A stretch of 64,000 nucleotides of DNA from Squalus acanthias. Lineage: Eukaryota. Under the pieces are notes generated by a model. The model worked only from the letters and a program-made list of their open reading frames with translations. It was not told where the DNA came from and did not search any database. The stretch covers positions 122,886,001 through 122,950,000 of the forward strand of contig CM059431.1 in the NCBI GenBank assembly GCA_030390025.1, read 5' to 3'. Both the position numbers and the translations under genes were made by a program. Position 1 is the first letter of the stretch, and each line of letters begins with the position of its first letter. Shown one piece after another: positions 10,296 to 61,652 of this stretch.

Positions 10296-10676
10296 TTGGA
10301 GTCCTAATTCAAGTCTTAGGGGGAAAAATTAGGTCGCGCCCCATTTGGCGTGCAAATATCGTCTGGACGCAAAAATTAGCGCCTGGCGCTAATTATCGCC
10401 ACTGACTGGAAACTTCACTTTTACCGCCCCGGGAGGTGAGTGGAGCGCTAAATCAGGTGCTGCACACCTGTCTTAAGGCGCAAAGGCCGAGCAGTGAGGC
10501 GCTAACTCAGCGCGCGAGCGCAGCGCAGGTGCTGCCAGTTAGCGAGGGAACACAGACACACTGGCAACGGCCAGTTCTTAAAGGGGGGGGGCCAACTTGC
10601 TCCCCAGCCACACCCTGCTCATTGCAGCCTTGAATCTCGGCCTGGAGAGACCTGTGAATCCATTTTGCAGCCAAGG

Positions 10677-27500: not shown

Positions 27501-29740
27501 CAAATGCGTGGTTTCTGATCCCGTCTCTGTCCCGCCTCCAAGAGGCGGGATAGGCCCTTAAGGCCCTTAACAACCACTTAATTGCCTCTATAATCCCATT
27601 TTGAGAGGCCTTTCTGATTTTAAGACTTTTCCGACGTGATGCACGCCTCCTCTGAAACACGACGGTGAAACCTGGCGGTAGCACATTTGGATTGCTGACT
27701 ATCAGCCGCAGGTCCACCATTAAGAAGGAGATTTGATCAATCATCATTCTGGGGGAACTTTTAGCAGTCATAATCATTGTTGTGGAAGTTTGGAGCCTGG
27801 AGTAGTAGTGGTGGTGGTGGTGGAAAAAAATTCTGGGAGCAGACTTAGGTCTCCTGCTGCTCATTTTGCCTCCAGCTCCCTCTCACAGCAAAGGCCAAAA
27901 GCTTCCCAGTCTTTGCAGACCTTAAATGCAGATGCAATGATGACATCATCAGAGGCGACTTTCAGGCTGAAAAACTAATTGGGTCATGGGTTCCCACATG
28001 CTGGAACTCAATTGCCCAATTAGGGGAAAATCGAATAATTCTCCCACATCCAATTGGAGTCGGGTGGCTAACACGAAAAGCGGATGACACGACCCCAGCC
28101 CGCCCCAATGACAAAATCGAGCCCCATGTCTCTGTAATGGCTATTAGATCAAACCCATTTATCTCTATTTGTGCCACTTGTTCTTCTATCTTGTTACGAA
28201 TGCTTCGTGCATTCAGATAAAGAGCCTTTAATTTACAATTTTTACCATTATTCCCTGCTTTGACCGTATTCTCTGCTGCACTGCTACCGTTAAACTCTCT
28301 GTCCCTTCCTGTCACACTCTGCTTATTTTTACACAAATTGCTACACTGCTCTATTCCCTTGACCTTTCCCTTCAGATTTCTAAATATCCCCTCACCTGAC
28401 CTCTCCCCCCCTTTTTTAGTTTAAAGCCCCATCTACAGCCCTAGTTATTCAATTTGCCAGGTCGTTGGTCCCGACAGAACAGCTCCCTCTTTCCCCAGTA
28501 CTGGTGCCAGTGCCCTATGAATTGAAACTCCTTCTTCCACACCACTCTTTGAGCCATGCATTTAACTCTCTGATCTGCTTGACCCTGTGCCAATTTGCGC
28601 GTGGCTCAGGTAGTAATCCAGAGATTATTAACATTGAGGATCTGCTTATTAATTTGGACCCTAGCTCCTCAAGCTCCCTCAGCAGAACCCCATTCTTAGT
28701 TCTACCTATGTTGTTGGTTCCTACATGGACCATGACAACTGGATCCTCCCCCTCCCACTTCAAGTTCTTCTCCAGCCACGAGGAGATGTCCTTAACCCTG
28801 GCACTGGGCAGGCAACTCAGTCTTCAGGACTCTCTTTCGCGGTTGCAGAGAACAGTATCTATCCCCCTGACTATACTGTCTCCGACCACTACCACATTCC
28901 TTCCTTCGCCCCCCACTTGGATGGCCCCCTGTACCACGGTGCCGTGGTCAGTTTGTCCATCCTCCTAGCAGTCCTTTTCCTCATCCATACATGTAGCAAG
29001 CACCTCGTACCTGTTGGCCAAGATCAAGGGCTGAGGATCCTCCATCACTACATCTTGGGTCCCCATACCTTCCTGACTCACGGTCACACCCTCCTGTCCC
29101 TGACCACTGATGAACTCTAAAGTACCTCTTAACCTAAAGGGTGTGACTGCCTCCTGGAACAAAGTGTCCAGGTAACTCTCCCCCTCCCTGATGCATTGCA
29201 ATGTCTGCAGCACGTACTCCAGCTCAACAACTCTGAGCCGAAGTTCCTCGAGTTGCAGACACTTACTGCAGATGTGGTTGTTCGGGATCGCGATGCTCCC
29301 CACAGACTCCCACATGCTGCAGTTATGACACACCACCTGCCCTGCCATCTCGAACCTTGTTTTATTTATTAATTAATTCGTTAAAACTTTTATTCAATCG
29401 ATATTTTAGTTTTATTGTTTGATTATTTTATCTAGTTTAACTTATTAATTTAATAAGTACTAGCAAGTTACAGTTTCTCAGCTCTTAATTTAACCCCCTT
29501 CCCTAACTTAGAGAGCAAAAAAAAAGCTGTAAAAAGAAGCTGTAATACTCACGAACCAATCACCTACCTGCTCTCCTGTGACGTCACGCTTTGATTTTTT
29601 TTAGTTGTTTGTGAATCGGAGCCTCGCCCCTGCCGCTGCTTTAATTCAGGTCCACTCTCAGGCCGCTCTTTCTCCTCTCGCTGCTGCCACTACTTTAATT
29701 CAGATCTGTTCTCGGGCTGCTCTTTATCCTCTCTCCGCTG
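24559..29740 (-). mobile_element. Near full-length CR1 LINE (5' UTR, ORF1 with Cys motif and SGNH esterase, ORF2 APE-RT), decayed
   Basis: ORF1 CHNC..CSKC plus HVGTN esterase block (28515-29348). ORF2 LNARSIRNK, ITETW, GDFN, SDHN, GVPQGS, FADD. Tail (TTCTTATG)n. Confidence 0.95.
27385..28124 (-). mobile_element. Non-autonomous derivative of the H5 family inserted in the CR1 endonuclease
   Basis: TIRs GGGCTCGATTTTG at both ends, TSD CAA/CAT. Splits ITETW|LQDDQGWEL. Ends homologous to the H5 ends. Confidence 0.9.
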
Positions 29741-30561
29741 CCATGAAGGCACCTCATCATCACCCAAGAGTGTTTATGAACCGGAAAGGCTTCCGCTCCC
29801 TCAATGTGCAGCTTGTCTGCAACCATAAAAAGATAATTATGCATGTGTGCGCCAGATTCCCTGGCAGCTGTCATGACATTTTCATGCCACGCCAGTCCAT
29901 GCTCCCTCAGCTCTTTGCATCTCCAAACATACTTATCGGCTGGCTGCTTGGAGACAAGGGCTATTCACTGAAGACATGGCTCATGACACCCCTCAGGAGG
30001 CCAAATACTGAGGCTCAGGAGCATTATAATGAGAGCCACATGTCCACCAGATGCGTCATAGAGCAAGCAATAGGCATGCTGAAGATGCGCTTCAGATGCC
30101 TTAACAGGTCTGGAGGAGCCCTTCAGTATGTACCAGCTAGGGTTTCCAGGATCATCATCGTCTGCTGCACGCTGCACAACATAGTGCAGCAGCGAGGATC
30201 GGAGCTGCAGGAGGAGCAAGGTGCAGAGCGCACTGTCTCTTCAGAGGAGGAGGAGGAGGAGGATGATGAGCAGGTGGAAGACAAGGAGGAGGTGGGGGAG
30301 GAGGAAGCTGAGATTCAGATGGCTTCAGCAGCGGTGCACATTGTTGCTTGGGAGGCCCGGGATGGCCTCATCACGGCCAGATTTACTTAACTTACCCCCA
30401 CCTCCCCCCACCAACAACACCATAAAGCATGCCAACAATGACCAAGCCATTGCTCTCACCCAAAGGCCCAATGCTCGAGGTTAAATAATGTCTCTCCATT
30501 CACTCCAAGTGACAAAGCCACTTCCAAGGTTTGAGGCAAAAATGGACAAGACCCGAAACTG

Positions 30562-34616: not shown

Positions 34617-35867
34617 TTAAGCAAATATGGCCAAGATGAGTGCTTCCCTTGCATCCTGGGCAGCAATGTGCTCACGTGCTGCTGCAATAGGTTGATGCGC
34701 ATCTGCAAGGTCTTCGTTCTCGTTCTCCTCCTCCTCCTCCTCCTCCTCCTCCTCATCTGAAGAGGCTATGCACTGAGTCACTTGTTCCTCAGGCAGCTGC
34801 AAGCCACGATGCTGTGCGATGTTGTGCAGTGCACAGCAGACCACGATGATTCTGGAGACCCTGGCTGCTGAGTACTGCAGGGCTCCACCTGATCTGTCAA
34901 GGCATCTGAATCGCATCTTCAGCAAGTTGATGGTTTGCTCCATGATGGATCTGGTCGAAATGTGGCTGGAGTTGTAGCGCTCCTCAGCTTTGTTGGATAG
35001 CCTCCTGAATGGTGTCATTAGCCACGTCTTCAGGTGATAGCCCTTGACTCCAAGTAGCCATCCGCAAAGTTGGTTTGGTAGACTTAAGAGCGGAGGCACA
35101 CTAGACTGGTGCAGGATGAACGTGTCATGGCAACTGCCAGGGTACTTGGCGCAAACATGCAAAATGTCCTTCTTGTTGTTACACACCAGCTGCACGTTGG
35201 GGGAGTGGAAGCCCTTGTGGTTGACAAAAAGAGCTGGGTTGTGATGGGGTGCCTTAAGGTCCACATGTGTGCAGTCTACGACGCCCTGCACCCTTGACAA
35301 GCCTGCCATATTTGCAAAGCATACCACACGTGTGGTTATACTTGCTTGATCTGTGGAGAAGTGGCTATAATTGTGCGCCTTTGCAAAGAGGGGGTCAGTA
35401 GCCTGCGTGATGCAAGTGTGTGCGGCCGACTGGGAGATGCCGCTGATGTCTGCTGATGATCCCTGGAAGGAGCCTGAAGCAAAAAGGTTGAGTGCGGTGG
35501 TGACTTTGACAGCCACTGGTAAGGGGTGTCCCCCCGCTCCTCTGGGCTCGTGGTGTTGATGCAGCATTGCGCAGATGTCACCGACTACCTCTTGCAAAAG
35601 TCTCAGCCTCCTTTGGCACTGCTGCTCCGTCATGTTGAGGAAGCTCATCCTCATCCTGTAAACCCTGTTTTGGGGGTATCTCCTGCGGCGACGTGCTTCC
35701 CTGCGCTGGCGCCTTTTGTCCTGTGCACCATCAGGTGGGTGAGTAGCAGGTTGGCATTCCTGTTGTTGCTGCTGTTGGTGCTGCTGTTGTGCCTGGTTCT
35801 GCTGCTGCCGCAGCTGCTTGTCCTCCAAATCTGAGGACCAGGATGAAAGGAAATAAATGGTTCCCAT
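34617..35867 (-). CDS. Harbinger transposase (HARBI1-like), uninterrupted 416-aa ORF with GDKGY changed to GVKGY
   Basis: Poly-Q and basic N-terminus, [31 protein letters not shown], acidic tail. Confidence 0.85.
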
Positions 35868-36379
35868 GCTGCTGGTAGATATCTCCGTTGAGGAAGCGCT
35901 CAGCCAATGTGGGGTGAGGGTTTTCCCAGGAGGTCACAGTGGAGATGGATCTCAGCTTCACCACTTCCAAGATCAGTGGACTTGCAAAAAGTTCTCCAAG
36001 ACCTGAAAAAACGAAGTTCTGCCACCTGCAACTGATCCTCATTGAGAGCTCCGTTTTTATGGTGGAGCTGCAGCTGTTAGGAAGCCAGCCACTTGTCAAC
36101 CCGACAGGATTAGCTGGGATGTTTCAGGAGAGACCTGCAGCACGCTGGAAATGTGGCAAAATAGGATTATAGAGGTACCTAAGTGGTAGTTAAGTGCCTT
36201 AAGTCCCTATCCCGCCGCCTGGAGGCACAACTGAAACGGACTCTGCAAGCCCGCCTCTGGCAAAGTTGCGTGGAGACGTGTTGACTGCGGGATCGGAACC
36301 CACCGTCACTTTTTCAAATTTTCCCACTAGTCCCGCCTCCAAACCCGCCTCCTCAGGGCTGGTAAAACCCAGCCCCTTG

Positions 36380-38904: not shown

Positions 38905-40024
38905 TAACACAATAGCAAAACACTGTGGATGCTGGAAATCTGAAACAACAACAGAAAATGCTGGAAACTCTCAGCAGGTCAGGCAGCATTGTGGAGAGAG
39001 AAACGGAGTTAACGGGCTGGATTTTATCAATGGGGAGGCGTTGGGGGCGGGACTGCTGCTTGTCGGGTTTCAGTCCCGCCCCCAACGACGTCCGGCCAAC
39101 CCACGCTATTTTCCCTTGATTGACCTTGTGAAGCCCGCCCTGCGGGTTTAGCCGGCCAATTAAGGGAAAGCCGGTGACAGAGAACATCAGCGTATGATGT
39201 TTCATCTTGACAGATTTTTTTGACAGATGAATTGTCATCGTTTGACAGCTTTGAGAAGCTGTCAAACACTGACAATCTCTGTTCAAAGGTAAGCCCTTGG
39301 ACTGAAGGCTTACCAAACCTCTCTCCTTAGCAGAAATCATATGGCTCCTGCATCGGAGAATGCAGCAGCCATTCTGTCATCTCTGCCATTGAGATGAGGC
39401 ACCTCCGGATCCCAAAAGATTGAAGCCTGCAGAAGAAACAAAGGTACGTAACCTTTTTCTAACACTTTGCACTCACCTCTCCACACTTGCTCCCATCACT
39501 CACCTCTACAGCAGACTTTTCGACCCCTCTCACCCCCGCAGACCCACTGCTCGCCTCGCTGACCCTGGCGAGGTTCGCAGCCATCGGGAAGCCCACACTT
39601 GTGTGGGTAAAATGGGGATAAGCTTCTTAATTGCCTGTTAACTACCTGTTAACAGGCAGTTAAGTGGCTGTAATTCCCTTCCCGCCTCGAGGAGACGAGT
39701 CCCCGCACGAATCGGGGACCCGCCTCCTGGGAAGATGGCATGGAGGCGGATTGGGAGCGGGGTTGGTACCCGCTCCCAGTTTCTGCCATTTTCCCGGCAG
39801 TCCTGCCTCCATACCCACCTCTCCAGGGCTGGGAAAATTCCCCCCAACATTTGACCCTTCGTCAGAACTGGAAAAAGTTAGAGATGTAACAGATTTTTAA
39901 GCAAGTGCAGAGGCAGGGAAGGGTCTTTGTCAGAAGGATCATCGACCTGAAACGTTAACTCTGTTTCTCTCTCCACGATGCTGCCTGACCCGCTGAGTGT
40001 TTCCAGCATTTTCTGTTGTTGTTA
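38905..40024. mobile_element. Penelope-like non-autonomous insertion with inverted pseudo-LTR arms
   Basis: TSD CTTGAGCATA (38895-38904, 40025-40034). Arms ~38945-39013 and ~39954-40022 are reverse complements. Degenerate hammerhead cores. Confidence 0.75.
39014..39845. mobile_element. Harbinger-type MITE nested in the Penelope-like element
   Basis: TIRs GGGCTGGATTTT and GGGGGGAATTTT, TSD AAC/AAC, CCCGCC subterminal motifs. Confidence 0.75.
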
Positions 40025-41697: not shown

Positions 41698-42061
41698 TCC
41701 TCTCTCCTCTCCCTCTTCTTGGTCAATCACTGGCTGAGCAGGCTGGATTTCTTGGGTGTCTGAAATGATGAAGGCACAAGGGTAGGGTTGTGGTGAGGGG
41801 AGAGGTTGAAAGCAAGAGGTGCATGCTTACACCATGTGCAGTCTGTAAATCAGAAGATATTGTGGGATGAGGGGGAAGTGGGATGTGAGAAGGAGGATAA
41901 CGTATGAGGATACCAGCATCTTGTATCCTTTCAGCCCCGCCACTGGCCAAGGGCTCAGCCATGCCCCTGCCCAGAATGCGGAGATGCCGGTGTTGGACTG
42001 GGGTGGGCAAAAGTGAGAAGTCGCACAACACCAGGTTATAGTCCAACAGTTTTATTTGAAA

Positions 42062-42099
42062 TCACAAGCTTTCGGAGCGGCTGCTCCTTCGTCAGGTGA
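42062..42099 (-). ncRNA. Minimal type I hammerhead ribozyme motif
   Basis: UCAC-CUGACGA-A-GGAGC-AGCC-GCUCC-GAAA-GC-UU-GUGA: intact core, 5-bp stem II, 4-bp stem I, palindromic AAGCUU stem III. Confidence 0.75.
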
Positions 42100-42112
42100 A
42101 GTTCTTTTGAAG

Positions 42113-42150
42113 TCACCTGATGAAGGAGCAGCCGCTCCGAAAGCTTGCGA
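42113..42150 (+). ncRNA. Minimal type I hammerhead ribozyme motif
   Basis: UCAC-CUGAUGA-A-GGAGC-AGCC-GCUCC-GAAA-GC-UU-GCGA, with one stem I mismatch. Confidence 0.7.
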
Positions 42151-42741
42151 TTTCAAATAAAACTGTTGGACTATAACCTGGTGTTGTGCGACTTCTCACT
42201 TTTGTCCTGCCCAGAATGGCCAGCACCGTCTCCTCCAAGGAGGTGAGGTGAAGCTAAGAAAGTGAGGTGTGCCTCATGTTTGGTGGAGATTGTTGGTCGG
42301 TGAGTGATGGGGGGGGATGGTCATGCATTGAGCAGTGTTTGAGGCTAATGGTGCAGTTGGTCCCACATCCTTCTTTCTGGAGGGTCTCTCTTCCAGTATT
42401 GACCCCCTGCACAAAGCTGGAATGCTGCGTCCGAGACCCTGGGTGCCCTATCCTTGGCCTGTTGTGCCATTTGTGTTAGTGCTGAAACACTTTTACCATT
42501 TTGATCAGCAGAAGACACCTCACCTTTAAGAGGTACAGACTGCCTAGTGCTGAAGCAATTTTACATTTTTTTATCTGCAGAGGGCAGCTCAGCTTTAAGA
42601 GTGGCAGACTGCCTTTAAGAGGAGCAACAATGAAGTTGACGCGCTGCCTGCGCTTTTTGAACGGGTGCGGGCATATCTTGCATCTTCCTGGCCATTATGT
42701 GTTTGTGATAGTTTGCTGTGCACAAATTAGCAGCTGCTTTT

Positions 42742-45196: not shown

Positions 45197-48100
45197 GGGT
45201 AGATTTCTGCGAACTCGCCTGAGGTAGATTTCTGCGAACTCACCTGAGGTAGATTTCTGCGAACTCGCCTGAGGTAGATTTCTGCGTGTTCGCCTTAGGT
45301 AGATTTCTGCGAATTCGCCTGAGGTAGTTTTCTGCGTGTTCGCCTTAGGTAGATTTCTGCGTGTTCGCCTTAGGTAGATTTCTGCGAACTCGCCTGAGGT
45401 AGATTTCTGCGTACTCGCCTGAGGTAGATTTCTCCGTGTTCACCTGAGGTAGATTTCTGCGTACTGGCCTGAGGTAGATTTCTCCATAGTCGCCAGAGGT
45501 AGATTTCTCCGTGTTCGCCTGAGGTAGATTTCTTCATATTCGCCTGAGGTAGATTTCTGCGTACTTGCCTGAGGTAGATTTCTGCGTACTTGCCTGAGGT
45601 AGATTTCTGCGTGTTCGCCTGAGGTAGATTTCTTCATACTCGCCTGAGGTAGATTTCTCCGTACTCGCCTGAGGTAGATTTCTGCGTGTTCGCCTGAGGT
45701 AGATTTCTGCGAACTCGACTGTGGTAGATTTCTGCATGTTTGCCTGAGGTAGATTTCTGCGTGTTCACCTGAGGTAGATTTCTGCGTGTTCACCTGAGGT
45801 AGATTTCTGCCTACTCGCCTGAGGTAGATTTCTGCGTGTTTGCCTGAAGTAGATTTCTGCGTGTTTGCCTGAAGTAGATTTCTGCGAACTCGACTGAGCT
45901 AGATTTCTGTGTACTTGCCTGAGTTAGATTTCTGCGTGTTCGTCTGAGGTAGATTTCTGCGAACTCGCCTGTGGTAGATTTCTGAGAACTCGCCTGTGGT
46001 AGATTTCTGTGAACTCGCCTGTGGTAGATTTCTGTGAACTCGCCTGTGGTAGATTTCTGCGTGTACGCCTGAGGTAGATTTCTTTGAACTCGCCTGTGGT
46101 AGATTTCTGCATGTTCACCTGAGGTAGATATCTGTGTACTCGCCTGAGCTAGATTTCTGCATGTTCGCCTGAGGTAGATTTCGGTGTGTTCGCCTGATTT
46201 AGATTTCTGCGTGTTTGCCTGAGGTAGATTTCTGCGAACTCGACTGAGCTAGATTTCTGTGTACTTGCCTGAGCTAGATTTCTGCATGTTTGCCTGAGCT
46301 AGATTTCTGCATGTTTGCCTGAGCGAGATTTCTGCATGTTCGCCTGAGGTAGATTTCTGCGTGTTCGTCTGAGGTAGATTTCTGTGTGTTCGCCTGAGGT
46401 AGATTTCTGCGAACTCGCCTGTAGTAGATTTCTGTGTGTTCGCCTGAGGTAGATTTCGGTGTGTTCGCCTGAGGTAGATTTCTGCGAACTCGCCTGTGGT
46501 AGATTTCTGTGTGTTCGCCTGAGGTAGATTTCTGCGAACTCGCCTGAGGTAGATTTCTGCATGTTTGACTGAGATAAGTTTCTGCGTAGTCTCCTGAGGT
46601 AGATTTCTGCGTGTTCACTTGAGGTAGATATCTGTGTACTCGCCTGAGCTAGATTTCTGCATGTTCACCTGAGGTAGATATCTGTGTACTTGCCTGAGGT
46701 AGATTTCTGCATGTTCGCCTGAGGTAGATTTCTGCGTGTTCACTTGAGGTAGATTTCTGCGAACTTGCCTGAGGTAGATTTCTGCATGTTCACCTGAGGT
46801 AGATATCTGTGTACTTGCCTGAGGTAGATTTCTGTATGTTCACCTGAGGTAGATATCTGTGTACTCGCCTGAGCTAGATTTCTGCATGTTCGCCTGAGGT
46901 AGATTTCGGTGTGTTCGCCTGAGGTAGATTTCTGCATGTTCGCCTGAGGTAGATTTCTGCGTGTTTGCCTGAGGTAGATTTCTGCGTACTCGTCTGAGGT
47001 AGATTTCTGCGTGTTTGCCTGATTTAGATTTCTGTGTGTTCGCCTGAGGTAGATTTCTGCGTGTTCGCCTGAGGTAGATTTCTGCGTGTTTGCCTGATTT
47101 AGATTTCTGTGTGTTCGCCTGAGGTAGATTTCTGCGTGTTTGCCTGATTTAGATTTCTGTGTGTTCGCCTGAGGTAGATTTCTGCGTGTTTGCCTGATTT
47201 AGATTTCTTCATATTCGCCTGAGGAAGATTTCTGCATGTTCACCTGAGGTAGATTTCTGCGAACTCGCCTGAGGTAGATTTCTGCATGTTCGCCTGAGGT
47301 AGATTTCTGCCTACTCGACTGAGCTAGATTTCTGCGAACTCAACTGTGGTAGATTTCTGTGTACTCGCCTGAGGTAGATTTCTGCGTACTCGACTGAGCT
47401 AGATTTCTGTGTACTCGCCTGAGGTAGATTTCTGCGTGTTCGCCTGAGGTAGATTTCTGCGTACTCGCCTGAGGTAGATTTCTGCGTACTCGCCTGAGGT
47501 AGATTTCTGCGTACTCGACTGAGCTAGATTTCTGTGTACTCGCCTGAGGTAGATTTCTGCGTGTTCGCCTGAGGTAGATTTCTGCGTACTCGCCTGAGGT
47601 AGATTTCTGCGTACTCGCCTGAGGTAGATTTCTGCGTGTTTGCCTGATTTAGATTTCTGTGCGTTCACCTGAGCTAGATTTCTGCCTATTCGCCTGAGGT
47701 AGATTTCTGCATTTTTACCTGAGGTAGATTTCTGCGTGTTCACCTGAGGTAGATTTCTGCGACCTCGCCTGAAGTAGATTTCTGCGTGTTCACCTGAGGT
47801 AGATTTCTGCGAACTCGCCTGAGGTAGATTTCTGCGAACTCGCCTGAGTTAGATTTCTGCGTGTTCACCTGAGGTAGATTTCTGCGAACTCGCCTGAGGT
47901 AGATTTCTGCGACCTCGCCTGAAGTAGATTTCTGCGAACTCGACTTTGGTAGATTTCTGCGTGTTCGCCTGAGGTAGATTTCTTTGAACTCGCCTGTGGT
48001 AGATTTCTGCATGTTCACCTGAGGTAGATATCTGTGTACTCGCCTGAGCTAGATTTCTGCATGTTCGCCTGAGGTAGATTTCGGTGTGTTCGCCTGATTT

Positions 48101-51100
48101 AGATTTCTGCGTGTTTGCCTGAGGTAGATTTCTGCGAACTCGACTGAGCTAGATTTCTGTGTACTTGCCTGAGCTAGATTTCTGCATGTTTGCCTGAGCT
48201 AGATTTCTGCATGTTTGCCTGAGCTAGATTTCTGCATGTTCGCCTGAGGTAGATTTCTGCGTGTTCGTCTGAGGTAGATTTCTGTGTGTTCGCCTGAGGT
48301 AGATTTCTGCGAACTCGCCTGTAGTAGATTTCTGTGTGTTCGCCTGAGGTAGATTTCGGTGTGTTCGCCTGAGGTAGATTTCTGCGAACTCGCCTGTGGT
48401 AGATTTCTGTGTGTTCGCCTGAGGTAGATTTCTGCGAACTCGCCTGTGGTAGATTTCTGTGTGTTCGCCTGAGGTAGATTTCTGCGAACTCGCCTGAGGT
48501 AGATTTCTGCATGTTTGACTGAGGTAAGTTTCTGCGTAGTCTCCTGAGGTAGATTTCTGCGTGTTCACTTGAGGTAGATATCTGTGTACTCGCCTGAGCT
48601 AGATTTCTGCATGTTCACCTGAGGTAGATATCTGTGTACTTGCCTGAGGTAGATTTCTGCATGTTCGCCTGAGGTAGATTTCTGCGTGTTCACTTGAGGT
48701 AGATTTCTGCGAACTTGCCTGAGGTAGATTTCTGCATGTTCACCTGAGGTAGATATCTGTGTACTTGCCTGAGGTAGATTTCTGTATGTTCACCTGAGGT
48801 AGATATCTGTGTACTCGCCTGAGCTAGATTTCTGCATGTTCGCCTGAGGTAGATTTCGGTGTGTTCGCCTGAGGTAGATTTCTGCATGTTCGCCTGAGGT
48901 AGATTTCTGCGTGTTTGCCTGAGGTAGATTTCTGCGTACTCGCCTGAGGTAGATTTCTGCGTGTTTGCCTGATTTAGATTTCTGTGTGTTCGCCTGAGGT
49001 AGATTTCTGCGTGTTTGCCTGATTTAGATTTCTGTGTGTTCGCCTGAGGTAGATTTCTGCGTGTTTGCCTGATTTAGATTTCTTCATATTCGCCTGAGGA
49101 AGATTTCTGCATGTTCACCTGAGGTAGATTTCTGCGAACTCGCCTGAGGTAGATTTCTGCATGTTCGCCTGAGGTAGATTTCTGCGTACTCGACTGAGCT
49201 AGATTTCTGCGAACTCAACTGTGGTAGATTTCTGTGTACTCGCCTGAGGTAGATTTCTGTGTACTCGCCTGAGGTAGATTTCTGCGTACTCGACTGAGCT
49301 AGATTTCTGTGTACTCGCCTGAGGTAGATTTCTGCGTGTTCGCCTGAGGTAGATTTCTGCGTACTCGCCTGAGGTAGATTTCTGCGTACTCGCTTGAGGT
49401 AGATTTCTGCGTACTCGACTGAGCTAGATTTCTGTGTACTCGCCTGAGGTAGATTTCTGCGTACTCGCCTGAGGTAGATTTCTGCCTATTCGCCTGAGGT
49501 AGATTTCTGCATTTTTACCTGAGGTAGATTTCTGCGTGTTCACCTGAGGTAGATTTCTGCGACCTCGCCTGAAGTAGATTTCTGCGTGTTCACCTGAGGT
49601 AGATTTCTGCGAACTCGCCTGAGGTAGATTTCTGTGTGTTCACCTGAGGAAGATTTCTGCGAACTCGCCTGAGGTAGATTTCTGCGTGTTCACCTGAGGA
49701 AGATTTCTGCGAACTCGCCTGAGGTAGATTTCTGCGAACTCGCCTGAGGTAGATTTCTGCGTACTCTTCTGAGGTAGATTTCTGCGTGTTCACCTGAGGT
49801 AGATTTCTGCGAACTCGCCTGAGGTAGATTTCTGCAAACTCGACTGTGGTAGATTCTGCGAACTCGCCTGAGGTAGATTTCTGCAAACTCGACTGTGGTA
49901 GATTCTGCGACCTCGCCTGAAGTAGATTTCTGCAAACTCGACTGTGGTAGATTCTGCGAACTCGCCTGAGGTAGATTTCTGCGAACTCGACTGTGGTAGA
50001 TTTCTGCGTACTCGCCTGAGGTAGATTTCTGCGTACTCGACTGAGCTAGATTTCTGCGTACTCGCCTGAGGTAGATTTCTGCTTGTTCGCCTGAGGTAGA
50101 TTTCTGCATTTTTACCTGAGGTAGATTTCTGCGTGTTCACCTGAGGTAGATTTCTGCGACCTCGCCTGAAGTAGATTTCTGCGTGTTCACCTGAGGTAGA
50201 TTTCTGCGAACTCGCCTGAGGTAGATTTCTGCGAACTCGCCTGAGGTAGATTTCTGCGAACTCGCCTGAGGTAGATTTCTGCGTACTCTTCTGAGGTAGA
50301 TTTCTGCGAACTCGCCTGAGGTAGATTTCTGCGACCTCGCCTGAAGTAGATTTCTGCAAACTCGACTGTGGTAGATTTCTGCGTGTTCGCCTGAGGTAGA
50401 TTCTGCGAACTCGCCTGAGGAAGATTTCTGCGAACTCGACTGTGGTAGATTTCTGCGTACTCGCCTGAGGAAGATTTCTGCGTACTCGACTGTGGTAGAT
50501 TTCTGCGAACTCGCCTGAGGTAGATTTCTGCGTACTCGCCTGAGGAAGATTTCTGCGTACTTGACTGTGGTAGATTTCTGCGAACTCGCCTGAGGAAGAT
50601 TTCTGCGAACTCGACTGTGGTAGATTTCTGCGAACTCGACTGAGGAAGATTTCTGCGAACTCGACTGTGGTAGATTTCTGCGTACTCGCCTGAGGAAGAT
50701 TTCTGCGAACTCGACTGTGGTAGATTTCTGCGAACTCGCCTGAGGTAGATTTCTGCGTATTCGCCTAAGGTTGATTCTGCGACCTCGCCTGAGTTAGATT
50801 TCTGCGTGTTTGCCTAAGGTTGATTTCTGCGTACTCGCCCGAGGTAGATTTCAGCATACTCGCCTGAGGTAGATTTCTGCGAACTCGCCTGAGGTAGATT
50901 ATGCATGTTTGCCTGAGGTAGATTTCTGCGTGTTTGCCTGAGGTAGATTTCTGCGTGTTTGCCTGAGGTAGATTTCTGCATGTTCGCCTGTGGTAGATTT
51001 CTGCGTGTTTGCCTGAGTTAGATTTCTGCGTGTTTGCCTGAGTTATGTTTCTGCGTACTCGTCTGAGGTAGATTTCCGTGTTCTCGCCTGACGTAGATTT

Positions 51101-54100
51101 CTGCCTACTGGCCTGAGGTAGATTTCTGCATGTTCACCTGAGTTACATTTCTACGAACTCACCTGAGGTCTATATCTTCATGTTTTCCTGAGGTAGATTT
51201 CTGCCTACTCGCCTGAGGTAGATTTCTGCCTACTCGCCTGAGGTAGATTTCTGCCTACTCGCCTGAGGTAGATTTCTGCCTACTCGCCTGAGGTAGATTT
51301 CTGCCTACTCGCCTGAGGTAGATTTCTGCCTACTCGCCTGAGGTAGATTTCTGCCTACTCGCCTGAGGTAGATTTTTGCGTGTTCGCCTGAGGTAGATTT
51401 CTATGCACTTGCCTGAGTTAGATTTCTGCATGTTCGCCTGAGGTAGATTTCTATGTACTCGCCTGAGGTAGATTTCTGTGTACTTGCCTGAGGTAGATTT
51501 CTGCATGTTTGCCTGAGGTAGATTTCTTCATGTTCGCCTGAGGTAGATTTCTGCGTGTTTGCCTGAGGTAGATTTCTGCATGTTTGCCTGAGGTAGATTT
51601 CTTCATGTTCGCCTGAGGTAGATTTCTGCGGTTTGCCTGAGGTAGATTTCTGCGTACTCGCCTGAGGTAGATTTCTGCGTGTTTGCCTGAGGTAGATTTC
51701 TGCGTGTTTGCCTGAGTTATGTTTCTGCGTACTCATCTGAGGTAGATTTCCGTGTTCTCGCCTGAGGTAGATTTCTGCCTACTGGCCTGAGGTAGATTTC
51801 TTCATGTTCGCCTGAGGTAGATATCTGCGACCTCGCCTGAGGTAGATTTCTGCGTGTTTGCCTGAGGTAGATTTCTGCATGTTCGCCTGTGATAGATTTC
51901 TGCATGTTCGCCTGTGATAGATTTCTGCATGTTCGCCTGTGGTAGATTTCTGCGTGTTTGCATGAGTTAGATTTCTGCTTACTCGCCTGAGGTAGATTGC
52001 TGCGTACTCGCCTGAGGTCGCTTTCTGCAAACTCACCTGAGGTAGATTTCCGTGTTCTCGTCTGACGTAGATTTTTGCATACTGGCCTGAGGTAGATATC
52101 TGCGTGTTCGCCTGAGGTAGATTTCTGCGTACTCGCCTGAGGTAGATTTCTGCGAACTCGCCTGAGGTAGATTTCTGCGTACTCGCCTGAGGTAGATTTC
52201 TGCGAACTCGCCTGAGGTAGATTTCTGCGTGTTTGCGTGAGGTCTATTTCTGTATGTTCGCCTGAGGTCGATTTCTGCATGTTCGCCTGTGGTAGATTTC
52301 TGCGTGTTTGCCTGAGTTAGATTTCTGCTTACTCGCCTGAGGTAGATTTCTGCATACTCGCCTGAGGTCGCTTTCTGCAAACTCACCTGAGGTAGATTTC
52401 CGTGTTCTCGTCTGACGTAGATTTCTGCATACTGGCCTGAGGTAGATATCTGCGTGTTTGCCTGAGGTAGATTTCTGCGTAGTCACCTGAGGTAGATTTC
52501 TGGGAAGTTGCCTGAGGTAGATTTCTGCGTAGTCACCTGAGGTAGATTTCTGGGAAGTTGCCTGAGGTAGATTTCTGCGTAGTCACCTGAGGTAGATTTC
52601 TGCGTGATCGCCTGAGGTAGATTTCTGAGAAGTTGCCTGAGGTAGATTTCTGCGTAGTCACCTGAGGTAGATTTCTGCATGCTCCCCTGCGGTAGATTTC
52701 TGCATGCTCGCCTGAGGTTGATTTCTGTGTGCTCACCTGAGGTAGATTTCTGCATGCTCGCCTGAGGTAGATTTCTGCATGCTCACCTGAGGTAGATTTC
52801 TGCATACTCGCCTGAGGTAGATTTCTGCATGCTCACCTGAGGTAGATTTCTGCGTGTTCGCCTGAGGTAGATTTCTGCTAGTTCGCCTGAGGTACATTTC
52901 TTCGAACTCGCCTGAGGTATATTTCTGCATGTTCGCCTGAGGTAGATTTCTGCCTACTCGCCTGAGGTAGATTTCTGCATGCTCACCTGGGGTAGATTTC
53001 TGTGTACTTTCCTGAGGTAGATTTCTGCGTACTCGCCTGAAGTAGATTTCTGCGTACTCGCCTGAGGTAGATTTCAGCATACTCGCCTGAGGTAGATTTC
53101 TGCGTGTTTGCCTGAGGTAGATTTTTGCATTTTTACCTGAGGTAGATTTCTGCCTACTCGCCTGAGTTAGATTTCTGCATGCTCACCTGAGGTAGATTTC
53201 TGTGTACTTTCCTGAGGTAGATTTCTGCGTATTCGCCTGAAGTAGATTTCTGCGTACTCGCCTGATGTAGATTTCTGCATGCTCACCTGCGGTAGATTTC
53301 TGTGTACTTTCCTGAGGTAGATTTCTGCCTACTCGCCTGAGGTAGATTTCTGCGTACTCGCCTGAGGTTGCTTTCTGCAAACTCACCTGATCGATCTCTG
53401 CGTTCACACCTGACGTAGATTTCTGCGTACTGGCCTGCGGTAGATTTCTGCGTGTTCGCCTGCGGTAGATTTCTGCGTGTTCCCATGAGGTAGATTTCTG
53501 CGAACGCACCTGAGGTAGATTTCTGCGTGTTCGCCTGAGGTAGATTTCTACATGTTCGCCTGTGGTAGATTTTGCGTGTTTGCCTGTGTTTGATTTCAGC
53601 TTACTCGCCTGAGGTAGATTTCCGCGTACTCGCCTGAGGTCGCTTTCTGCAAACTCACCTGAGGTAGATTTCTGATAGTTCGCCTGCGGTAGATTTCTGC
53701 GTGTTCGCCTGAGGTAGATTTCTGCAAACTCACCTGAGGTATATTTCTGCGTTCTCGCCTGACGTAGATTTCTGCGTACTGGCCTGAGTTAGATTTCTGC
53801 GTGTTCCCATGAGGTAGATTTCTGCGTGTTCGCCTTAGGTAGATTTCTGGGAACTCGCCTGAGGTAGATTTCTGCGTACTCCCCTGAGGTAGATTTCTGC
53901 GTACTCGCCTGAATAAGATTTCTGTGTACTCGCCTGAGATAGATTTCGGTGTACTCGCCTGAGGTAGATTTCTGCTTGTTCACCTGAGGTAGATTTCTGC
54001 GAACTCGCCTGAGGTAGATTTCTGCATGTTCGCCTGAGGTAGATTTCTGCGTACTCGACTGAGGTAGATTTCTGCATGTTCGCCTGAGGTAGATTTCTGC

Positions 54101-57100
54101 GTACTCGACTGAGCTAGATTTCTGCGAACTCAACTGTGGTAGATTTCTGTGTACTCGCCTGAGGTAGATTTCTGTGTACTCGCCTGAGGTAGATTTCTGC
54201 GTACTCGACTGAGCTAGATTTCTGTGTACTCGCCTGAGGTAGATTTCTGCGTGTTCGCCTGAGGTAGATTTCTGCGTACTCGCCTGAGGTAGATTTCTGC
54301 GTACTCGCTTGAGGTAGATTTCTGCGTACTCGACTGAGCTAGATTTCTGTGTACTCGCCTGAGGTAGATTTCTGCGTACTCGCCTGAGGTAGATTTCTGC
54401 CTATTCGCCTGAGGTAGATTTCTGCATTTTTACCTGAGGTAGATTTCTGCGTGTTCACCTGAGGTAGATTTCTGCGACCTCGCCTGAAGTAGATTTCTGC
54501 GTGTTCACCTGAGGTAGATTTCTGCGAACTCGCCTGAGGTAGATTTCTGTGTGTTCACCTGAGGAAGATTTCTGCGAACTCGCCTGAGGTAGATTTCTGC
54601 GTGTTCACCTGAGGAAGATTTCTGCGAACTCGCCTGAGGTAGATTTCTGCGAACTCGCCTGAGGTAGATTTCTGCGTACTCTTCTGAGGTAGATTTCTGC
54701 GTGTTCACCTGAGGTAGATTTCTGCGAACTCGCCTGAGGTAGATTTCTGCAAACTCGACTGTGGTAGATTCTGCGAACTCGCCTGAGGTAGATTTCTGCG
54801 AACTCGACTGTGGTAGATTTCTGCGTACTCGCCTGAGGTAGATTTCTGCGTACTCGACTGAGCTAGATTTCTGCGTACTCGCCTGAGGTAGATTTCTGCC
54901 TATTCGCCTGAGGTAGATTTCTGCATTTTTACCTGAGGTAGATTTCTGCGTGTTCACCTGAGGTAGATTTCTGCGACCTCGCCTGAAGTAGATTTCTGCG
55001 TGTTCACCTGAGGTAGATTTCTGCGAACTCGCCTGAGGTAGATTTCTGCGAACTCGCCTGAGGTAGATTTCTGCGAACTCGCCTGAGGTAGATTTCTGCG
55101 TACTCTTCTGAGGTAGATTTCTGCGAACTCGCCTGAGGTAGATTTCTGCGACCTCGCCTGAAGTAGATTTCTGCAAACTCGACTGTGGTAGATTTCTGCG
55201 TGTTCGCCTGAGGTAGATTCTGCGAACTCGCCTGAGGAAGATTTCTGCGAACTCGACTGTGGTAGATTTCTGCGTACTCGCCTGAGGAAGATTTCTGCGT
55301 ACTCGACTGTGGTAGATTTCTGCGAACTCGCCTGAGGTAGATTTCTGCGTACTCGCCTGAGGAAGATTTCTGCGTACTTGACTGTGGTAGATTTCTGCGA
55401 ACTCGCCTGAGGAAGATTTCTGCGAACTCGACTGTGGTAGATTTCTGCGAACTCGACTGAGGAAGATTTCTGCGAACTCGACTGTGGTAGATTTCTGCGT
55501 ACTCGCCTGAGGAAGATTTCTGCGAACTCGACTGTGGTAGATTTCTGCGAACTCGCCTGAGGTAGATTTCTGCGTATTCGCCTAAGGTTGATTCTGCGAC
55601 CTCGCCTGAGTTAGATTTCTGCGTGTTTGCCTAAGGTTGATTTCTGCGTACTCGCCCGAGGTAGATTTCAGCATACTCGCCTGAGGTAGATTTCTGCGAA
55701 CTCGCCTGAGGTAGATTATGCATGTTTGCCTGAGGTAGATTTCTGCGTGTTTGCCTGAGGTAGATTTCTGCGTGTTTGCCTGAGGTAGATTTCTGCATGT
55801 TCGCCTGTGGTAGATTTCTGCGTGTTTGCCTGAGTTAGATTTCTGCGTGTTTGCCTGAGTTATGTTTCTGCGTACTCGTCTGAGGTAGATTTCCGTGTTC
55901 TCGCCTGACGTAGATTTCTGCCTACTGGCCTGAGGTAGATTTCTGCATGTTCACCTGAGTTACATTTCTACGAACTCACCTGAGGTCTATATCTTCATGT
56001 TTTCCTGAGGTAGATTTCTGCCTACTCGCCTGAGGTAGATTTCTGCCTACTCGCCTGAGGTAGATTTCTGCCTACTCGCCTGAGGTAGATTTCTGCCTAC
56101 TCGCCTGAGGTAGATTTCTGCCTACTCGCCTGAGGTAGATTTCTGCCTACTCGCCTGAGGTAGATTTCTGCCTACTCGCCTGAGGTAGATTTTTGCGTGT
56201 TCGCCTGAGGTAGATTTCTATGCACTTGCCTGAGTTAGATTTCTGCATGTTCGCCTGAGGTAGCTTTCTATGTACTCGCCTGAGGTAGATTTCTGTGTAC
56301 TTGCCTGAGGTAGATTTCTGCATGTTTGCCTGAGGTAGATTTCTTCATGTTCGCCTGAGGTAGATTTCTGCGTGTTTGCCTGAGGTAGATTTCTGCATGT
56401 TTGCCTGAGGTAGATTTCTTCATGTTCGCCTGAGGTAGATTTCTGCGGTTTGCCTGAGGTAGATTTCTGCGTACTCGCCTGAGGTAGATTTCTGCGTGTT
56501 TGCCTGAGGTAGATTTCTGCGTACTCGCCTGAGGTAGATTTCTGCGTGTTTGCCTGAGTTAGATTTCTGCGTGTTTGCCTGAGTTATGTTTCTGCGTACT
56601 CGTCTGAGGTAGATTTCCGTGTTCTCGCCTGACGTAGATTTCTGCCTACTGGCCTGAGGTAGATTTCTGCATGTTCACCTGAGTTACATTTCTACGAACT
56701 CGCCTGAGGTCTATATCTTCATGTTTTCCTGAGGTAGATTTCTGCCTACTCGCCTGAGGTAGATTTCTGCGACCTCGCCTGAGGTAGATTTCTGCGTGTT
56801 TGCCTGTGATAGATTTCTGCATGTTCGCCTGTGGTAGATTTCTGCGTGTTCGCCTGAGGTAGATTTCTGCGTACTCGCCTGAGGTAGATTTCTGCGAACT
56901 CGCCTGAGGTAGATTTCTGCGTACTCGCCTGAGGTAGATTTCTGCGAACTCGCCTGAGGTAGATTTCTGCGTGTTTGCGTGAGGTCTATTTCTGTATGTT
57001 CGCCTGAGGTCGATTTCTGCATGTTCGCCTGTGGTAGATTTCTGCGTGTTTGCCTGAGTTAGATTTCTGCTTACTCGCCTGAGGTAGATTTCTGCATACT

Positions 57101-60100
57101 CGCCTGAGGTCGCTTTCTGCAAACTCACCTGAGGTAGATTTCCGTGTTCTCGTCTGACGTAGATTTCTGCATACTGGCCTGAGGTAGATATCTGCGTGTT
57201 TGCCTGAGGTAGATTTCTGCGTAGTCACCTGAGGTAGATTTCTGGGAAGTTGCCTGAGGTAGATTTCTGCGTAGTCACCTGAGGTAGATTTCTGGGAAGT
57301 TGCCTGAGGTAGATTTCTGCGTAGTCACCTGAGGTAGATTTCTGCGTGATCGCCTGAGGTAGATTTCTGAGAAGTTGCCTGAGGTAGATTTCTGCGTAGT
57401 CACCTGAGGTAGATTTCTGCATGCTCCCCTGCGGTAGATTTCTGCATGCTCGCCTGAGGTTGATTTCTGTGTGCTCACCTGAGGTAGATTTCTGCATGCT
57501 CGCCTGAGGTAGATTTCTGCATGCTCACCTGAGGTAGATTTCTGCATACTCGCCTGAGGTAGATTTCTGCATGCTCACCTGAGGTAGATTTCTGCGTGTT
57601 CGCCTGAGGTAGATTTCTGCTAGTTCGCCTGAGGTACATTTCTTCGAACTCGCCTGAGGTATATTTCTGCATGTTCGCCTGAGGTAGATTTCTGCCTACT
57701 CGCCTGAGGTAGATTTCTGCATGCTCACCTGGGGTAGATTTCTGTGTACTTTCCTGAGGTAGATTTCTGCGTACTCGCCTGAAGTAGATTTCTGCGTACT
57801 CGCCTGAGGTAGATTTCAGCATACTCGCCTGAGGTAGATTTCTGCGTGTTTGCCTGAGGTAGATTTTTGCATTTTTACCTGAGGTAGATTTCTGCCTACT
57901 CGCCTGAGTTAGATTTCTGCATGCTCACCTGAGGTAGATTTCTGTGTACTTTCCTGAGGTAGATTTCTGCGTATTCGCCTGAAGTAGATTTCTGCGTACT
58001 CGCCTGATGTAGATTTCTGCATGCTCACCTGCGGTAGATTTCTGTGTACTTTCCTGAGGTAGATTTCTGCCTACTCGCCTGAGGTAGATTTCTGCGTACT
58101 CGCCTGAGGTTGCTTTCTGCAAACTCACCTGATCGATCTCTGCGTTCACACCTGACGTAGATTTCTGCGTACTGGCCTGCGGTAGATTTCTGCGTGTTCG
58201 CCTGCGGTAGATTTCTGCGTGTTCCCATGAGGTAGATTTCTGCGAACGCACCTGAGGTAGATTTCTGCGTGTTCGCCTGAGGTAGATTTCTACATGTTCG
58301 CCTGTGGTAGATTTTGCGTGTTTGCCTGTGTTTGATTTCAGCTTACTCGCCTGAGGTAGATTTCCGCGTACTCGCCTGAGGTCGCTTTCTGCAAACTCAC
58401 CTGAGGTAGATTTCTGATAGTTCGCCTGCGGTAGATTTCTGCGTGTTCGCCTGAGGTAGATTTCTGCAAACTCACCTGAGGTATATTTCTGCGTTCTCGC
58501 CTGACGTAGATTTCTGCGTACTGGCCTGAGTTAGATTTCTGCGTGTTCCCATGAGGTAGATTTCTGCGTGTTCGCCTTAGGTAGATTTCTGGGAACTCGC
58601 CTGAGGTAGATTTCTGCGTACTCCCCTGAGGTAGATTTCTGCGTACTCGCCTGAATAAGATTTCTGTGTACTCGCCTGAGATAGATTTCGGTGTACTCGC
58701 CTGAGGTAGATTTCTGCTTGTTCGCCTGAGGTAGATTTCTGCGTTTTCACCTGAGGTAGATTTCTGCATGTTCACCTGAGGTAGATTTCTGCATACTCCC
58801 CTGAGGTAGATTTCTGCGTACTCGCCTGAATAAGATTTCTGTGTACTCGCCTGAGGTAGATTTCTGCATACTCTCCTGAGGTAGATTTCTGCTTGTTCGC
58901 CTGAGGTAGATTTCTGCGTGTTCACCTGAGGTAGATTTCTGCGTACTCGCCAGAGGTAGATTTCAGCGTGTTCACCTGAGGTAGATTTCTGCAAACTCTC
59001 CTGAGGTAGATTTCTGCGTGTTCGCCTGAGGTAGATTTCTGCATGTTCGCCTGTGTTAGATTTCTGCTTACTCGCCTGAGGTAGATTTCTGCGTGTTCGC
59101 CTGAGGTAGATTTCTGCATGTTCGCCTGTGGTAGATTTCTGCAAACTCTCCTGATGTAGATATCTGCGTGTTCCCATGAGGTAGATTTCTGCATGCTTGC
59201 CTGAGGTAGATTTCTGCGTTTCGCCTGAGGTAGATTTCTGTATGTTCGCCTAAAGTAGATTTCTGCGTACTTGCCTGAGATAGATTTTGGTGTACTCTCC
59301 TGAGGTAGATTTCTGCGTGTTCCCCTGAGGTAGATTTCTGCGTGTTCGCCTGAGCTAGATTTCTGTCTACTCTCCTGAGGTAGATTTCTGCGTTCTCGCC
59401 TGACGTAGATTTCTGCGTACTGGCCTGTGGTAGATATCTGCGTGTTCGCATGAGGTAGATTTCTGCGTACTCCCCTGGGTTAGATTTCTGCGTGTTCCCA
59501 TGAGGTAGATTTCTGCGTACTCCCCTGAGTTAGATTTCTGCGTACTCGCCTTAGGTAGATTTCTGGGAACTCGCCTGAGGTAGATTTCTGCGTACTCCCC
59601 TGAGTTAGATTTCTGCGTACTCGCCTTAGGTAGATTTCTGGGAACTCCCCTGAGGTAGATTTCTGCGTATTCGCCTGAAGTAGATTTCTGCGTACTCGCC
59701 TGATGTAGATTTCTGCATGCTCACCTGCGGTAGATTTCTGTGTACTTTCCTGAGGTAGATTTCTGCCTACTCGCCTGAGGTAGATTTCTGCGTACTCGCC
59801 TGAGGTTGCTTTCTGCAAACTCACCTGAGGTAGATCTCTGCGTTCACACCTGACGTAGATTTCTGCGTACTGGCCTGCGGTAGATTTCTGCGTGTTCGCC
59901 TGCGGTAGATTTCTGCGTGTTCCCATGAGGTAGATTTCTGCGAACGCACCTGAGGTAGATTTCTGCGTGTTCGCCTGAGGTAGATTTCTGCATGTTCGCC
60001 TGTGGTAGATTTTGCGTGTTTGCCTGTGTTTGATTTCAGCTTACTCGCCTGAGGTAGATTTCCGCGTACTCGCCTGCGGTCGCTTTCTGCAAACTCACCT

Positions 60101-61652
60101 GAGGTAGATTTCTGCGTGTTCGCCTGCGGTAGATTTCTGCGTGTTCGCCTGAGGTAGATTTCTGCAAACTCACCTGAGGTATATTTCTGCGTTCTCGCCT
60201 GACGTAGATTTCTGCGTACTGGCCTGAGTTAGATTTCTGCGTGTTCCCATGAGGTAGATTTCTGCGTGTTCGCCTTAGGTGGATTTCTGGGAACTCGCCT
60301 GAGGTAGATTTCTGCGTACTCCCCTGAGGTAGATTTCTGCGTACTCGCCTGAATAAGATTTCTGTGTACTCGCCTGAGATAGATTTCGGTGTACTCGCCT
60401 GAGGTAGATTTCTGCTTGTTCGCCTGAGGTAGATTTCTGCGTGTTCACCTGAGGTAGATTTCTACGTGTTCACCTGAGGTAGATTTCTGCATGTTCACCT
60501 GAGGTAGATTTCTGCATACTCCCCTGAGGTAGATTTCTGCGTACTCGCCTGAATAAGATTTCTGTGTACTCGCCTGAGGTAGATTTCTGCATACTCTCCT
60601 GAGGTAGATTTCTGCGTGTTCACCTGAGGTAGATTTCTGCATGTTCACCTGAGGTAGATTTCTGCATACTCGCCAGAGGTAGATTTCAGCGTGTTCACCT
60701 GAGGTAGATTTCTGCAAACTCTCCTGAGGTAGATTTCTGCGTGTTCGCCTGAGGTAGATTTCTGCATGTTCGCCTGTGTTAGATTTCTGCTTACTCGCCT
60801 GAGGTAGATTTCTGCGTACTCGCCTTAGGTAGATTTCTGGGAACTCCCCTGAGGTAGATTTCTGGGAACTCCCCTGAGGTAGATTTCTGCGTGTTCCCCT
60901 GAGGTAGATTTCTGCGTGTTCCCCTGAGGTAGATTTCTGCATGCTCGCCTGAGGAAGATTTCTGCGTTTCGCCTGAGGTAGATTTCTGTATGTTCGCCTA
61001 AAGTAGATTTCTGCGTACTCGCCTGAATTAGATTTCTGCGTACTCGCCTGAGATAGATTTCGGTGTAGTCGCCTGAGGTAGATTTCTGCGTGTTCGCCTG
61101 AGCTAGATTTATGCCTACTCTCCTGAGGTAGATTTCTGCGTACTCTCCTGAGGTAGATTTCTGCGTAATCGCCTGAGGTAGATTTCTGCGTGTTCGCCTG
61201 TGGTAGATTTCTGCGTGTTTGCCTGTGTTAGATTTCTGCTTACTCGCCTGAGGTAGATTTCTGCTTACTCGCCTGAGGTAGATTTCTGCATACTCCCCTG
61301 AGGTAGATTTCTGCGTACTCGCCTGAATTAGATTTCTGTGTACTCGCCTGAGATAGATTTCGGTGTACTCGCCTGAGGTAGATTTCTGCTTGTTCGCCTG
61401 AGGTAGATTTCTGCGTGTTCACCTGAGGTAGATTTCTGTGTACTCGCCTGAATTACTTTTCTGCGTACTTGCCTGAGGTAGATTTCTGCGTGTTCCCCAT
61501 AGGTAGATTTCTGCGTGTTCGCCTGAGGTAGATTTCTGCGTGTTCGCCTGAGGTCAATTTCTGCGTTTTCGCCTGCGGTTGATTTCTGCATGTTCGCCTG
61601 AGGTAGATTTTTGCGTGTTTGCCTGAGGTAGATTTCTGCGTGCTCGCCTGAG
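45197..61652. repeat. 25-bp satellite, ~16.5 kb (~660 monomers), consensus CCTGAGGTAGATTTCTGCGTACTCG
   Basis: Continuous tandem array with a conserved 17-mer and a variable octamer, plus higher-order duplications. Confidence 0.98.

Follow-up and report, generated by a model that had tools for sequence, protein, structure and literature searches.

A palindromic hammerhead locus in Squalus acanthias as a probable head-to-head insertion of two truncated Penelope-like element copies

EN+ Penelope-like elements (PLEs) are described as carrying an inverted 5'-truncated copy and a tail of 30-40 bp (PMC8557442, text and legend to Fig. 2; for Adineta Pen2a/Pen3a, PMC3846280). A CX2-5CxxC linker between reverse transcriptase (RT) and endonuclease is given as a Neptune feature in PMC8557442; Nematis also has it, so it is not exclusive to Neptune. 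For Schistosoma, PMC4209133 already records hammerhead pairs on opposite strands at distances of 100-700 bp, and no difference between paired arms within a single insertion is described in the parts consulted. In vitro, the Poseidon protein of Anolis carolinensis nicks and extends both strands with uncleaved RNA as template; two internal start sites, 111-118 nt into the ORF and free of strand bias and homology, bound the tail, and a dimer is predicted (PMC11167929). The inverted pseudo-LTR (pLTR), the tail and the dimer-type hammerheads have thus been published already, and the layout is known. The insertions described here share with EN+ PLEs the head-to-head inverted pLTR, a one-sided tail reaching the ORF start, partial tandems, a target-site duplication (TSD) of about 10 bp, and a TATA box with an initiator-like TCACT in the pLTR. 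They differ from the published descriptions in that both copies are cut to about 100 nt, that the TSD is 11-14 bp long, and that thousands of copies make the asymmetry and the length coupling countable.

The locus lies in a 64,000-nucleotide stretch of Squalus acanthias contig CM059431.1 (hereafter the window, whose coordinates are used throughout). Its parts are the following.

41966-41978, plus strand: left TSD, 13 bp, single-copy in 11/11 paralogous empty sites
41979-42007, minus strand: one-sided tail, the last part of the source element's 5' leader, stopping 4 nt before the ATG
42008-42102, minus strand: tail-bearing 5'-truncated copy, starting 7 nt before the hammerhead core, at the presumed RNA start
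42062-42099, minus strand: putative minimal hammerhead, intact, predicted cut 42066/42065
42103-42112, no strand: filler in which TGAAG is repeated, at a junction that occurs once in the genome
42113-42205, plus strand: 5'-truncated copy that lacks the tail and faces the tail-bearing copy head to head
42113-42150, plus strand: putative minimal hammerhead, stem I broken by an A-C mismatch, cut predicted after 42146
42206-42218, plus strand: right TSD, the same 13-mer as the left one, its first 2 nt also matching the element

Two 92-bp arms (42008-42099 and 42113-42204) enclose a 13-nt loop, 197 bp in all, and differ at only two positions (42091/42121 and 42064/42148); the minus-strand copy extends to 42102, beyond the end of its arm. 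Folded as RNA, the region reached -202 kcal/mol (z = -27 against 200 shuffles), and no tandem repeat was found at the palindrome. The host site (41760-42300) belongs to a repeat family with 2,717 candidates. All 11 paralogous empty sites examined carry one copy of the 13-mer followed directly by the right flank, showing that the flanking 13-mer is a true TSD. The initial annotation, which had described a 197-bp palindrome with a one-sided tail and a 13-bp TSD and had pointed to an inverted truncated copy, was right on each of these points. The last 3 nt of the left TSD match the tail as well, which we infer to be priming microhomology. With neither TATA box nor ORF the window stump is probably inert, and the locus itself is an ordinary dead insertion.

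A complete hammerhead had been claimed for each arm. Both cores are present (42117-42146 on the plus strand, 42095-42066 on the minus strand), with an extra A between A9 and stem II and a stem II of 5 bp, and the palindrome AAGCUU stands as the sole stem III in each arm, as had been stated. The claim appears to hold in full for the minus-strand copy, which has a 4-bp stem I, the core with its extra A, the 5-bp stem II and the palindromic stem III. It does not extend to the plus-strand copy: the A-C mismatch at 42115/42148 replaces a pair that is A-U in 24/24 recurrent long-copy haplotypes, and this copy, judged from its sequence, is not a complete ribozyme; its N7 is likely the result of CpG decay. 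The predicted cuts are correctly placed by standard hammerhead numbering. With the minimal PLE hammerheads of PMC4209133, as described there, these motifs share the extra nucleotide between 9 and 10.1, G10.1-C11.1, the palindromic 15.2-16.2, the short stem I and the high variability of stem II; a stem II of 5 bp sets them apart.

The proposed search with hammerhead models did not detect the motif: at E<=10 no Rfam hammerhead model matched the locus, and only hairpin-type chance matches below the gathering score were returned, so that the assignment rests on motif and covariation. Among the 24 recurrent haplotypes C3, G5, A6, G8, A9, GAAA and GCU are invariant, U4 is replaced by C in four, and the core is otherwise constant apart from N7. 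Stem cells are paired in 97.7% of cases, with compensatory C-G to U-A changes in 5 rows for stem I and 3 rows for stem II; these rows are related, each change may represent one event, and the downstream leader is also well conserved. The pattern suggests that the ribozyme is kept under selection in the source lineages, in line with the minimal, dimer-type hammerheads that had been proposed. The four haplotypes with C at core position 4 (L204, L163, L076 and L078) were amplified nonetheless.

To identify the source element, the 3.7-Gb genome assembly was searched with a 24-nt arm motif, which gave 98,841 exact matches and none for the reversed control. In long copies an ORF precedes the hammerhead, at 532 pLTR-ORF junctions the tail continues into an ATG, and the window tail is the last part of the source element's leader before the start codon. 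The tail arm of the window is identical to the full-length copy L193 at 123/125 nt, and the arm is thus the end of the coding element itself; the Penelope-like origin that had been suspected was right. Full-length copies repeat a unit of about 3.1 kb in tandem, either completely or in part (37 tandem pairs in 60 regions examined), and their upstream pLTRs start elsewhere than at the position 7 nt before the core (hereafter -7), namely 14 to >900 nt upstream. ORFs of 891-892 aa were obtained from 21 of the 53 ORF starts scored. RVT_1 was found above its cut-off in the source ORF (E 1.3e-8), and a C-x4-C-x2-C linker, which conforms to the CX2-5CxxC Neptune feature, in 21/21 ORFs of this length. 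GIY-YIG was not matched in the Pfam search of the source ORF and the PDB search gave 0 matches; an Atlas cluster with 31% GIY-YIG is close to the C-terminal 153 aa (score 0.96), and the ORF contains VYLIRC...YIGET, which we take to be the GIY-YIG motif.

The source thus combines a single ORF of about 890 aa, reading from RT through the linker to a C-terminal GIY-YIG-like domain, with tandem pLTRs that carry a minimal hammerhead. Its insertions combine an inverted 5'-truncated copy with a one-sided tail of 30-40 bp and a TSD. These are features of EN+ PLEs, and the source is an autonomous PLE, of Neptune type as judged by linker and domain order. The partner with RT and GIY-YIG that was expected to share the arm has accordingly been found, its endonuclease domain being GIY-YIG-like. 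In L238 (C2:211213576-211223019) and L207, as many as four units of 3,138 nt follow one another head to tail and have near-identical pLTRs, an arrangement expected from rolling-circle copying.

Head-to-head core pairs within 30 nt occur at 5,627 loci genome-wide, and the central junction of the window is found once. Spacers are distinct in 42 of the first 50 mini-palindrome loci; three simple spacers recur 3-4 times in these 50, as 6-9 nt microhomology joins, and do so on different subfamilies with different outer ends. The single shared complex spacer seen (L009 and L023) comes with common flanks, which identifies it as a duplication. Anchors of inverted pairs in an unselected sample (the first 100 motif matches on contig C1) are 47 to 2,915 nt apart in a continuous range, and the mini-palindrome is the short end of a length continuum that reaches up to full-length coding copies. 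An internal junction and termini shared among copies, the mark of a non-autonomous unit, were not found. Non-LTR retrozymes, described as non-coding, hammerhead-bearing and related to PLE pLTRs (bioRxiv 10.64898/2026.07.22.740005), resemble the locus in these respects, but they are head-to-tail tandem repeats, whereas the locus has no head-to-tail tandem and its arms stand head to head; this identification was rejected in favour of a single-event stump with no sign of amplification of its own.

Several regularities are shared by the inverted pairs. Exactly one tail was present in 29/29 pairs chosen by hand from the table of the unselected sample. A script applied to 50 mini-palindromes scored one tail in 41, none in 6 and left 3 unparsed; by eye, four of the six have a mutated tail. 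The only two-tailed locus, L029, was met among the 30 best matches. Arm lengths are coupled, with 13 short-short, 15 long-long and 1 mixed pair against 14.4 mixed pairs expected (p = 6e-8). Either arm may be the longer, by up to 10-fold, and several long pairs have near-equal arms (L058, L078, L096, L107). The distance from the anchor to the outer end falls into two groups, 34-47 and 70-92 nt. A TSD was found at 40/51 loci, of 11-14 bp in 38 of them, and the mean overlap between element and target is 1.3 and 1.8 nt, the latter at the tail-less end. As for the inner ends, 11 of the 100 unselected arms stop 7-9 nt before C3, 5 at 16-30 nt, 49 beyond 60 nt and 16 inside the ribozyme. A TATA box lies 30-32 nt upstream of -7 in 32 of the 33 copies that have a TATA word; a cap-derived G at arm ends is unsupported (G 26, A 18 of 44). 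Downstream of the cut the arms agree, in 47/47 cases for the block +1 to +8 and in 45/47 at +16, where about 23-25 mismatches would be expected randomly. Spacers often hold short inverted or repeated pieces.

Element identity, the true TSD, the unique junction, one tail per pair, coupled lengths and the pile-up at -7 are observed. Taken together they make it probable that the palindrome is a one-off insertion of two 5'-truncated, head-to-head PLE copies, made when both nicked strands primed synthesis on one RNA and ran off at its 5' end. A staggered target cut about 12 bp wide would leave two 3' ends. One would prime near the start codon and give the tail arm, and the other, on the same RNA, would start some 38 nt further towards the ribozyme. 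The template would be a linear, uncleaved transcript beginning at the TATA/initiator site, so that both cDNAs would run off 7 nt past the core after about 95-130 nt. Microhomology end joining with filler would then unite the cDNAs into a palindrome of 200-250 bp. The same priming on circular or tandem RNA would yield long arms and the 3.1-kb tandems, and providing such RNA would be the hammerhead's role. This scheme fits the reported in vitro behaviour of Poseidon (PMC11167929) and the circle model (PMC4209133).

Several observations stand against parts of this model. Against run-off, some of the pile-up could be due to stalling on structure (16/100 arms stop inside the ribozyme, and stops in stem II are many), -7 is not where full-length copies have the beginning of their upstream pLTRs, and the cap signature is absent at arm ends. 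Against start sites specific to a single strand, Poseidon in vitro is reported to show neither strand bias of its start sites nor target homology (PMC11167929), whereas here the start sites are at or before the ATG, one per strand in 29/29 pairs, with an overlap of 1-2 nt. Against a single RNA, the stem II differences in mini-palindromes are left unexplained. The copy set constrains the mechanism by which PLEs make inverted pLTRs and tails, and the purpose of the hammerhead; specific predictions for the existing in vitro assay follow from the single tail of each pair, the coupling of arm lengths and the stop at a point defined by the TATA box.

In 17 of the 47 parsed mini-palindromes the two arms have stem II sequences more than one transition apart, against 1/15 long pairs (p = 0.047, Fisher) and 1/30 parsed tandem pairs (p = 0.0007); L001-L030, which had been ranked by likeness to the query, were excluded from these counts. 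The discordant long pair, L105, joins two separate insertions, leaving 0/14 among true long pairs. The window's own two arms agree at stem II. The commonest AGC-loop form occupies one arm in 17/17 discordant pairs. On foreign backgrounds, two targeted searches returned 92 and 38 matches for this form. By eye, the partner stem differs in 24 of the 25 readable insertions among the first 30 of the 92, and 21 of these 30 AGC arms lie within mini-palindromes; for the first 30 of the 38, a partner is visible in 18 insertions and differs in 17 of them, and 15 of the 30 arms lie within mini-palindromes. Such arms are rare in the youngest subfamilies, where 38 AGC arms were found genome-wide against 998 arm matches in young mini-palindromes. 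There are also swaps that do not involve the AGC form (6 in the first 50 of 457 loci, by eye). A rare variant would be expected to remain unpaired if templates were independent, yet both flanks are usually native, so that the pattern agrees neither with one RNA nor with two RNAs taken at random.

Any of three causes could produce these differences: template switching, conversion or an artefact of polishing. For the stem II differences alone, there is a good chance, if somewhat short of even, that they arose after insertion by short-tract gene conversion in hairpin-prone DNA or during polishing of the assembly, where short reads could drop out at palindromes and the commonest variant be written in. 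The presence of the AGC-loop form in one arm of every discordant pair, the preference of AGC arms on foreign backgrounds for mini-palindromes and the sparing of the youngest subfamilies all agree with such an origin. It is harder to reconcile with diagnostic sites 3-16 nt past the cut that are unconverted (0/47 and 2/47), with upstream flanks that remain lineage-specific and with the swaps that do not involve AGC; moreover, no age effect on discordance was seen, discordant loci being no more diverged than concordant ones (p = 0.98, at low power). A single crossover at the cleavage site was rejected as a general rule, since several long arms have kept both of their native flanks and arm ends at the cut are few. 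L297 and L299/L300 are apparent single-crossover recombinants, with an upstream half of the AGC-loop subfamily and a downstream marker of a young subfamily. Source elements with two different pLTRs were rejected on the tandem pairs, and no internal donor of the AGC form was found within the element in 37 units.

A broader proposal, which we regard as a long shot, is that mini-palindromes are a fossil record in which uncleaved RNA primed twice became a strong-stop stump unless the hammerhead had circularised it, and in which paired hammerheads served as a retroviral-like dimer site where a stalled RT hopped to the partner RNA at stem II. Hopping at stem II, if true, would account for the differences between arms and likewise for the extreme variability that stem II shows in PLE hammerheads. 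The differences, if they survive a check of raw reads, would be evidence of template exchange at the ribozyme. Neither stem II differences between arms nor run-off at the RNA start was found described in the main-text passages of open-access papers that were searched.

As to the palindrome itself, it is unlikely that the 3' end of a target-primed cDNA snapped back and copied itself, with cutting or joining of the copy some 38 nt before the tail end. Near-equal arms, as in L058, L078, L096 and L107, are predicted by such a fold-back as well, and short inverted or repeated pieces in spacers and agreement between arms downstream of the cut would follow from it; self-priming has been proposed (PMC3846280). 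It does not account for pairs in which either arm is the longer, by up to 10-fold, for the clustered tail-less end with its mean target overlap of 1.8 nt, or for the stem II differences, and the in vitro reactions reported in PMC11167929 extended both strands from two sites that bound the tail.

Copying of two RNAs, one by each strand, held by a protein dimer and perhaps paired through the palindromic stem III, is more doubtful still. It would accommodate the stem II differences in 17/47 mini-palindromes, the arms of L066, L138 and L029, which show linked differences at several sites and correspond to two real haplotypes, and the pairing of loop AGCC with AGCA in 6 of the first 50 of 457 loci, where G occurs at that place in none (by eye). 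Within one lineage, however, a polymorphism at +16 differs in 2 of 31 pairs against 14.7 expected, no true long pair is discordant, and in L247, L250, L256, L268, L274 and L276 both flanks are native and the change is confined to stem II, alone or together with N7. The strict one-tail asymmetry and the length coupling are also simpler with one RNA.

The proposal of the initial annotation, that the locus belongs to a young palindromic mini-element without coding capacity whose transcript is mobilised in trans as a whole and switches between self-cleavage and dsRNA, is hardly credible: the abundance of head-to-head junctions, the similar size of the copies and the three recurring simple spacers speak for it, but the window junction is unique and most spacers are distinct, the recurring ones sit on different subfamilies with differing outer ends, the sole shared complex spacer is a duplication, the arm is the end of a coding element, and lengths run continuously up to full-length coding copies. 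The switch found no support either: a transcript of either strand makes the antisense arm first, which would likely sequester the ribozyme, and the ribozyme needs a partner while the plus-strand copy is damaged.

Other sequences were noted beside the palindrome. The window holds a 16.4-kb satellite at 45198-61652 (25-bp unit, 659 copies, 83% matches), and its ORFs at 10506-11366, 29605-30390 and 34617-35933 look like a Harbinger transposase and Myb-like partners. At 39850-39970 lies a second, decayed hammerhead-like remnant of another type, with CTGACGAAGGGTC on the minus strand and GAAACGTT on the plus strand, possibly an older head-to-head Penelope stump. Elsewhere in the genome, L135, L142 and L198 carry the same foreign sequence at one fixed arm base, in both arms in the case of L135. 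Many of the insertions L031-L060 lie inside LINE-like RT coding remnants.
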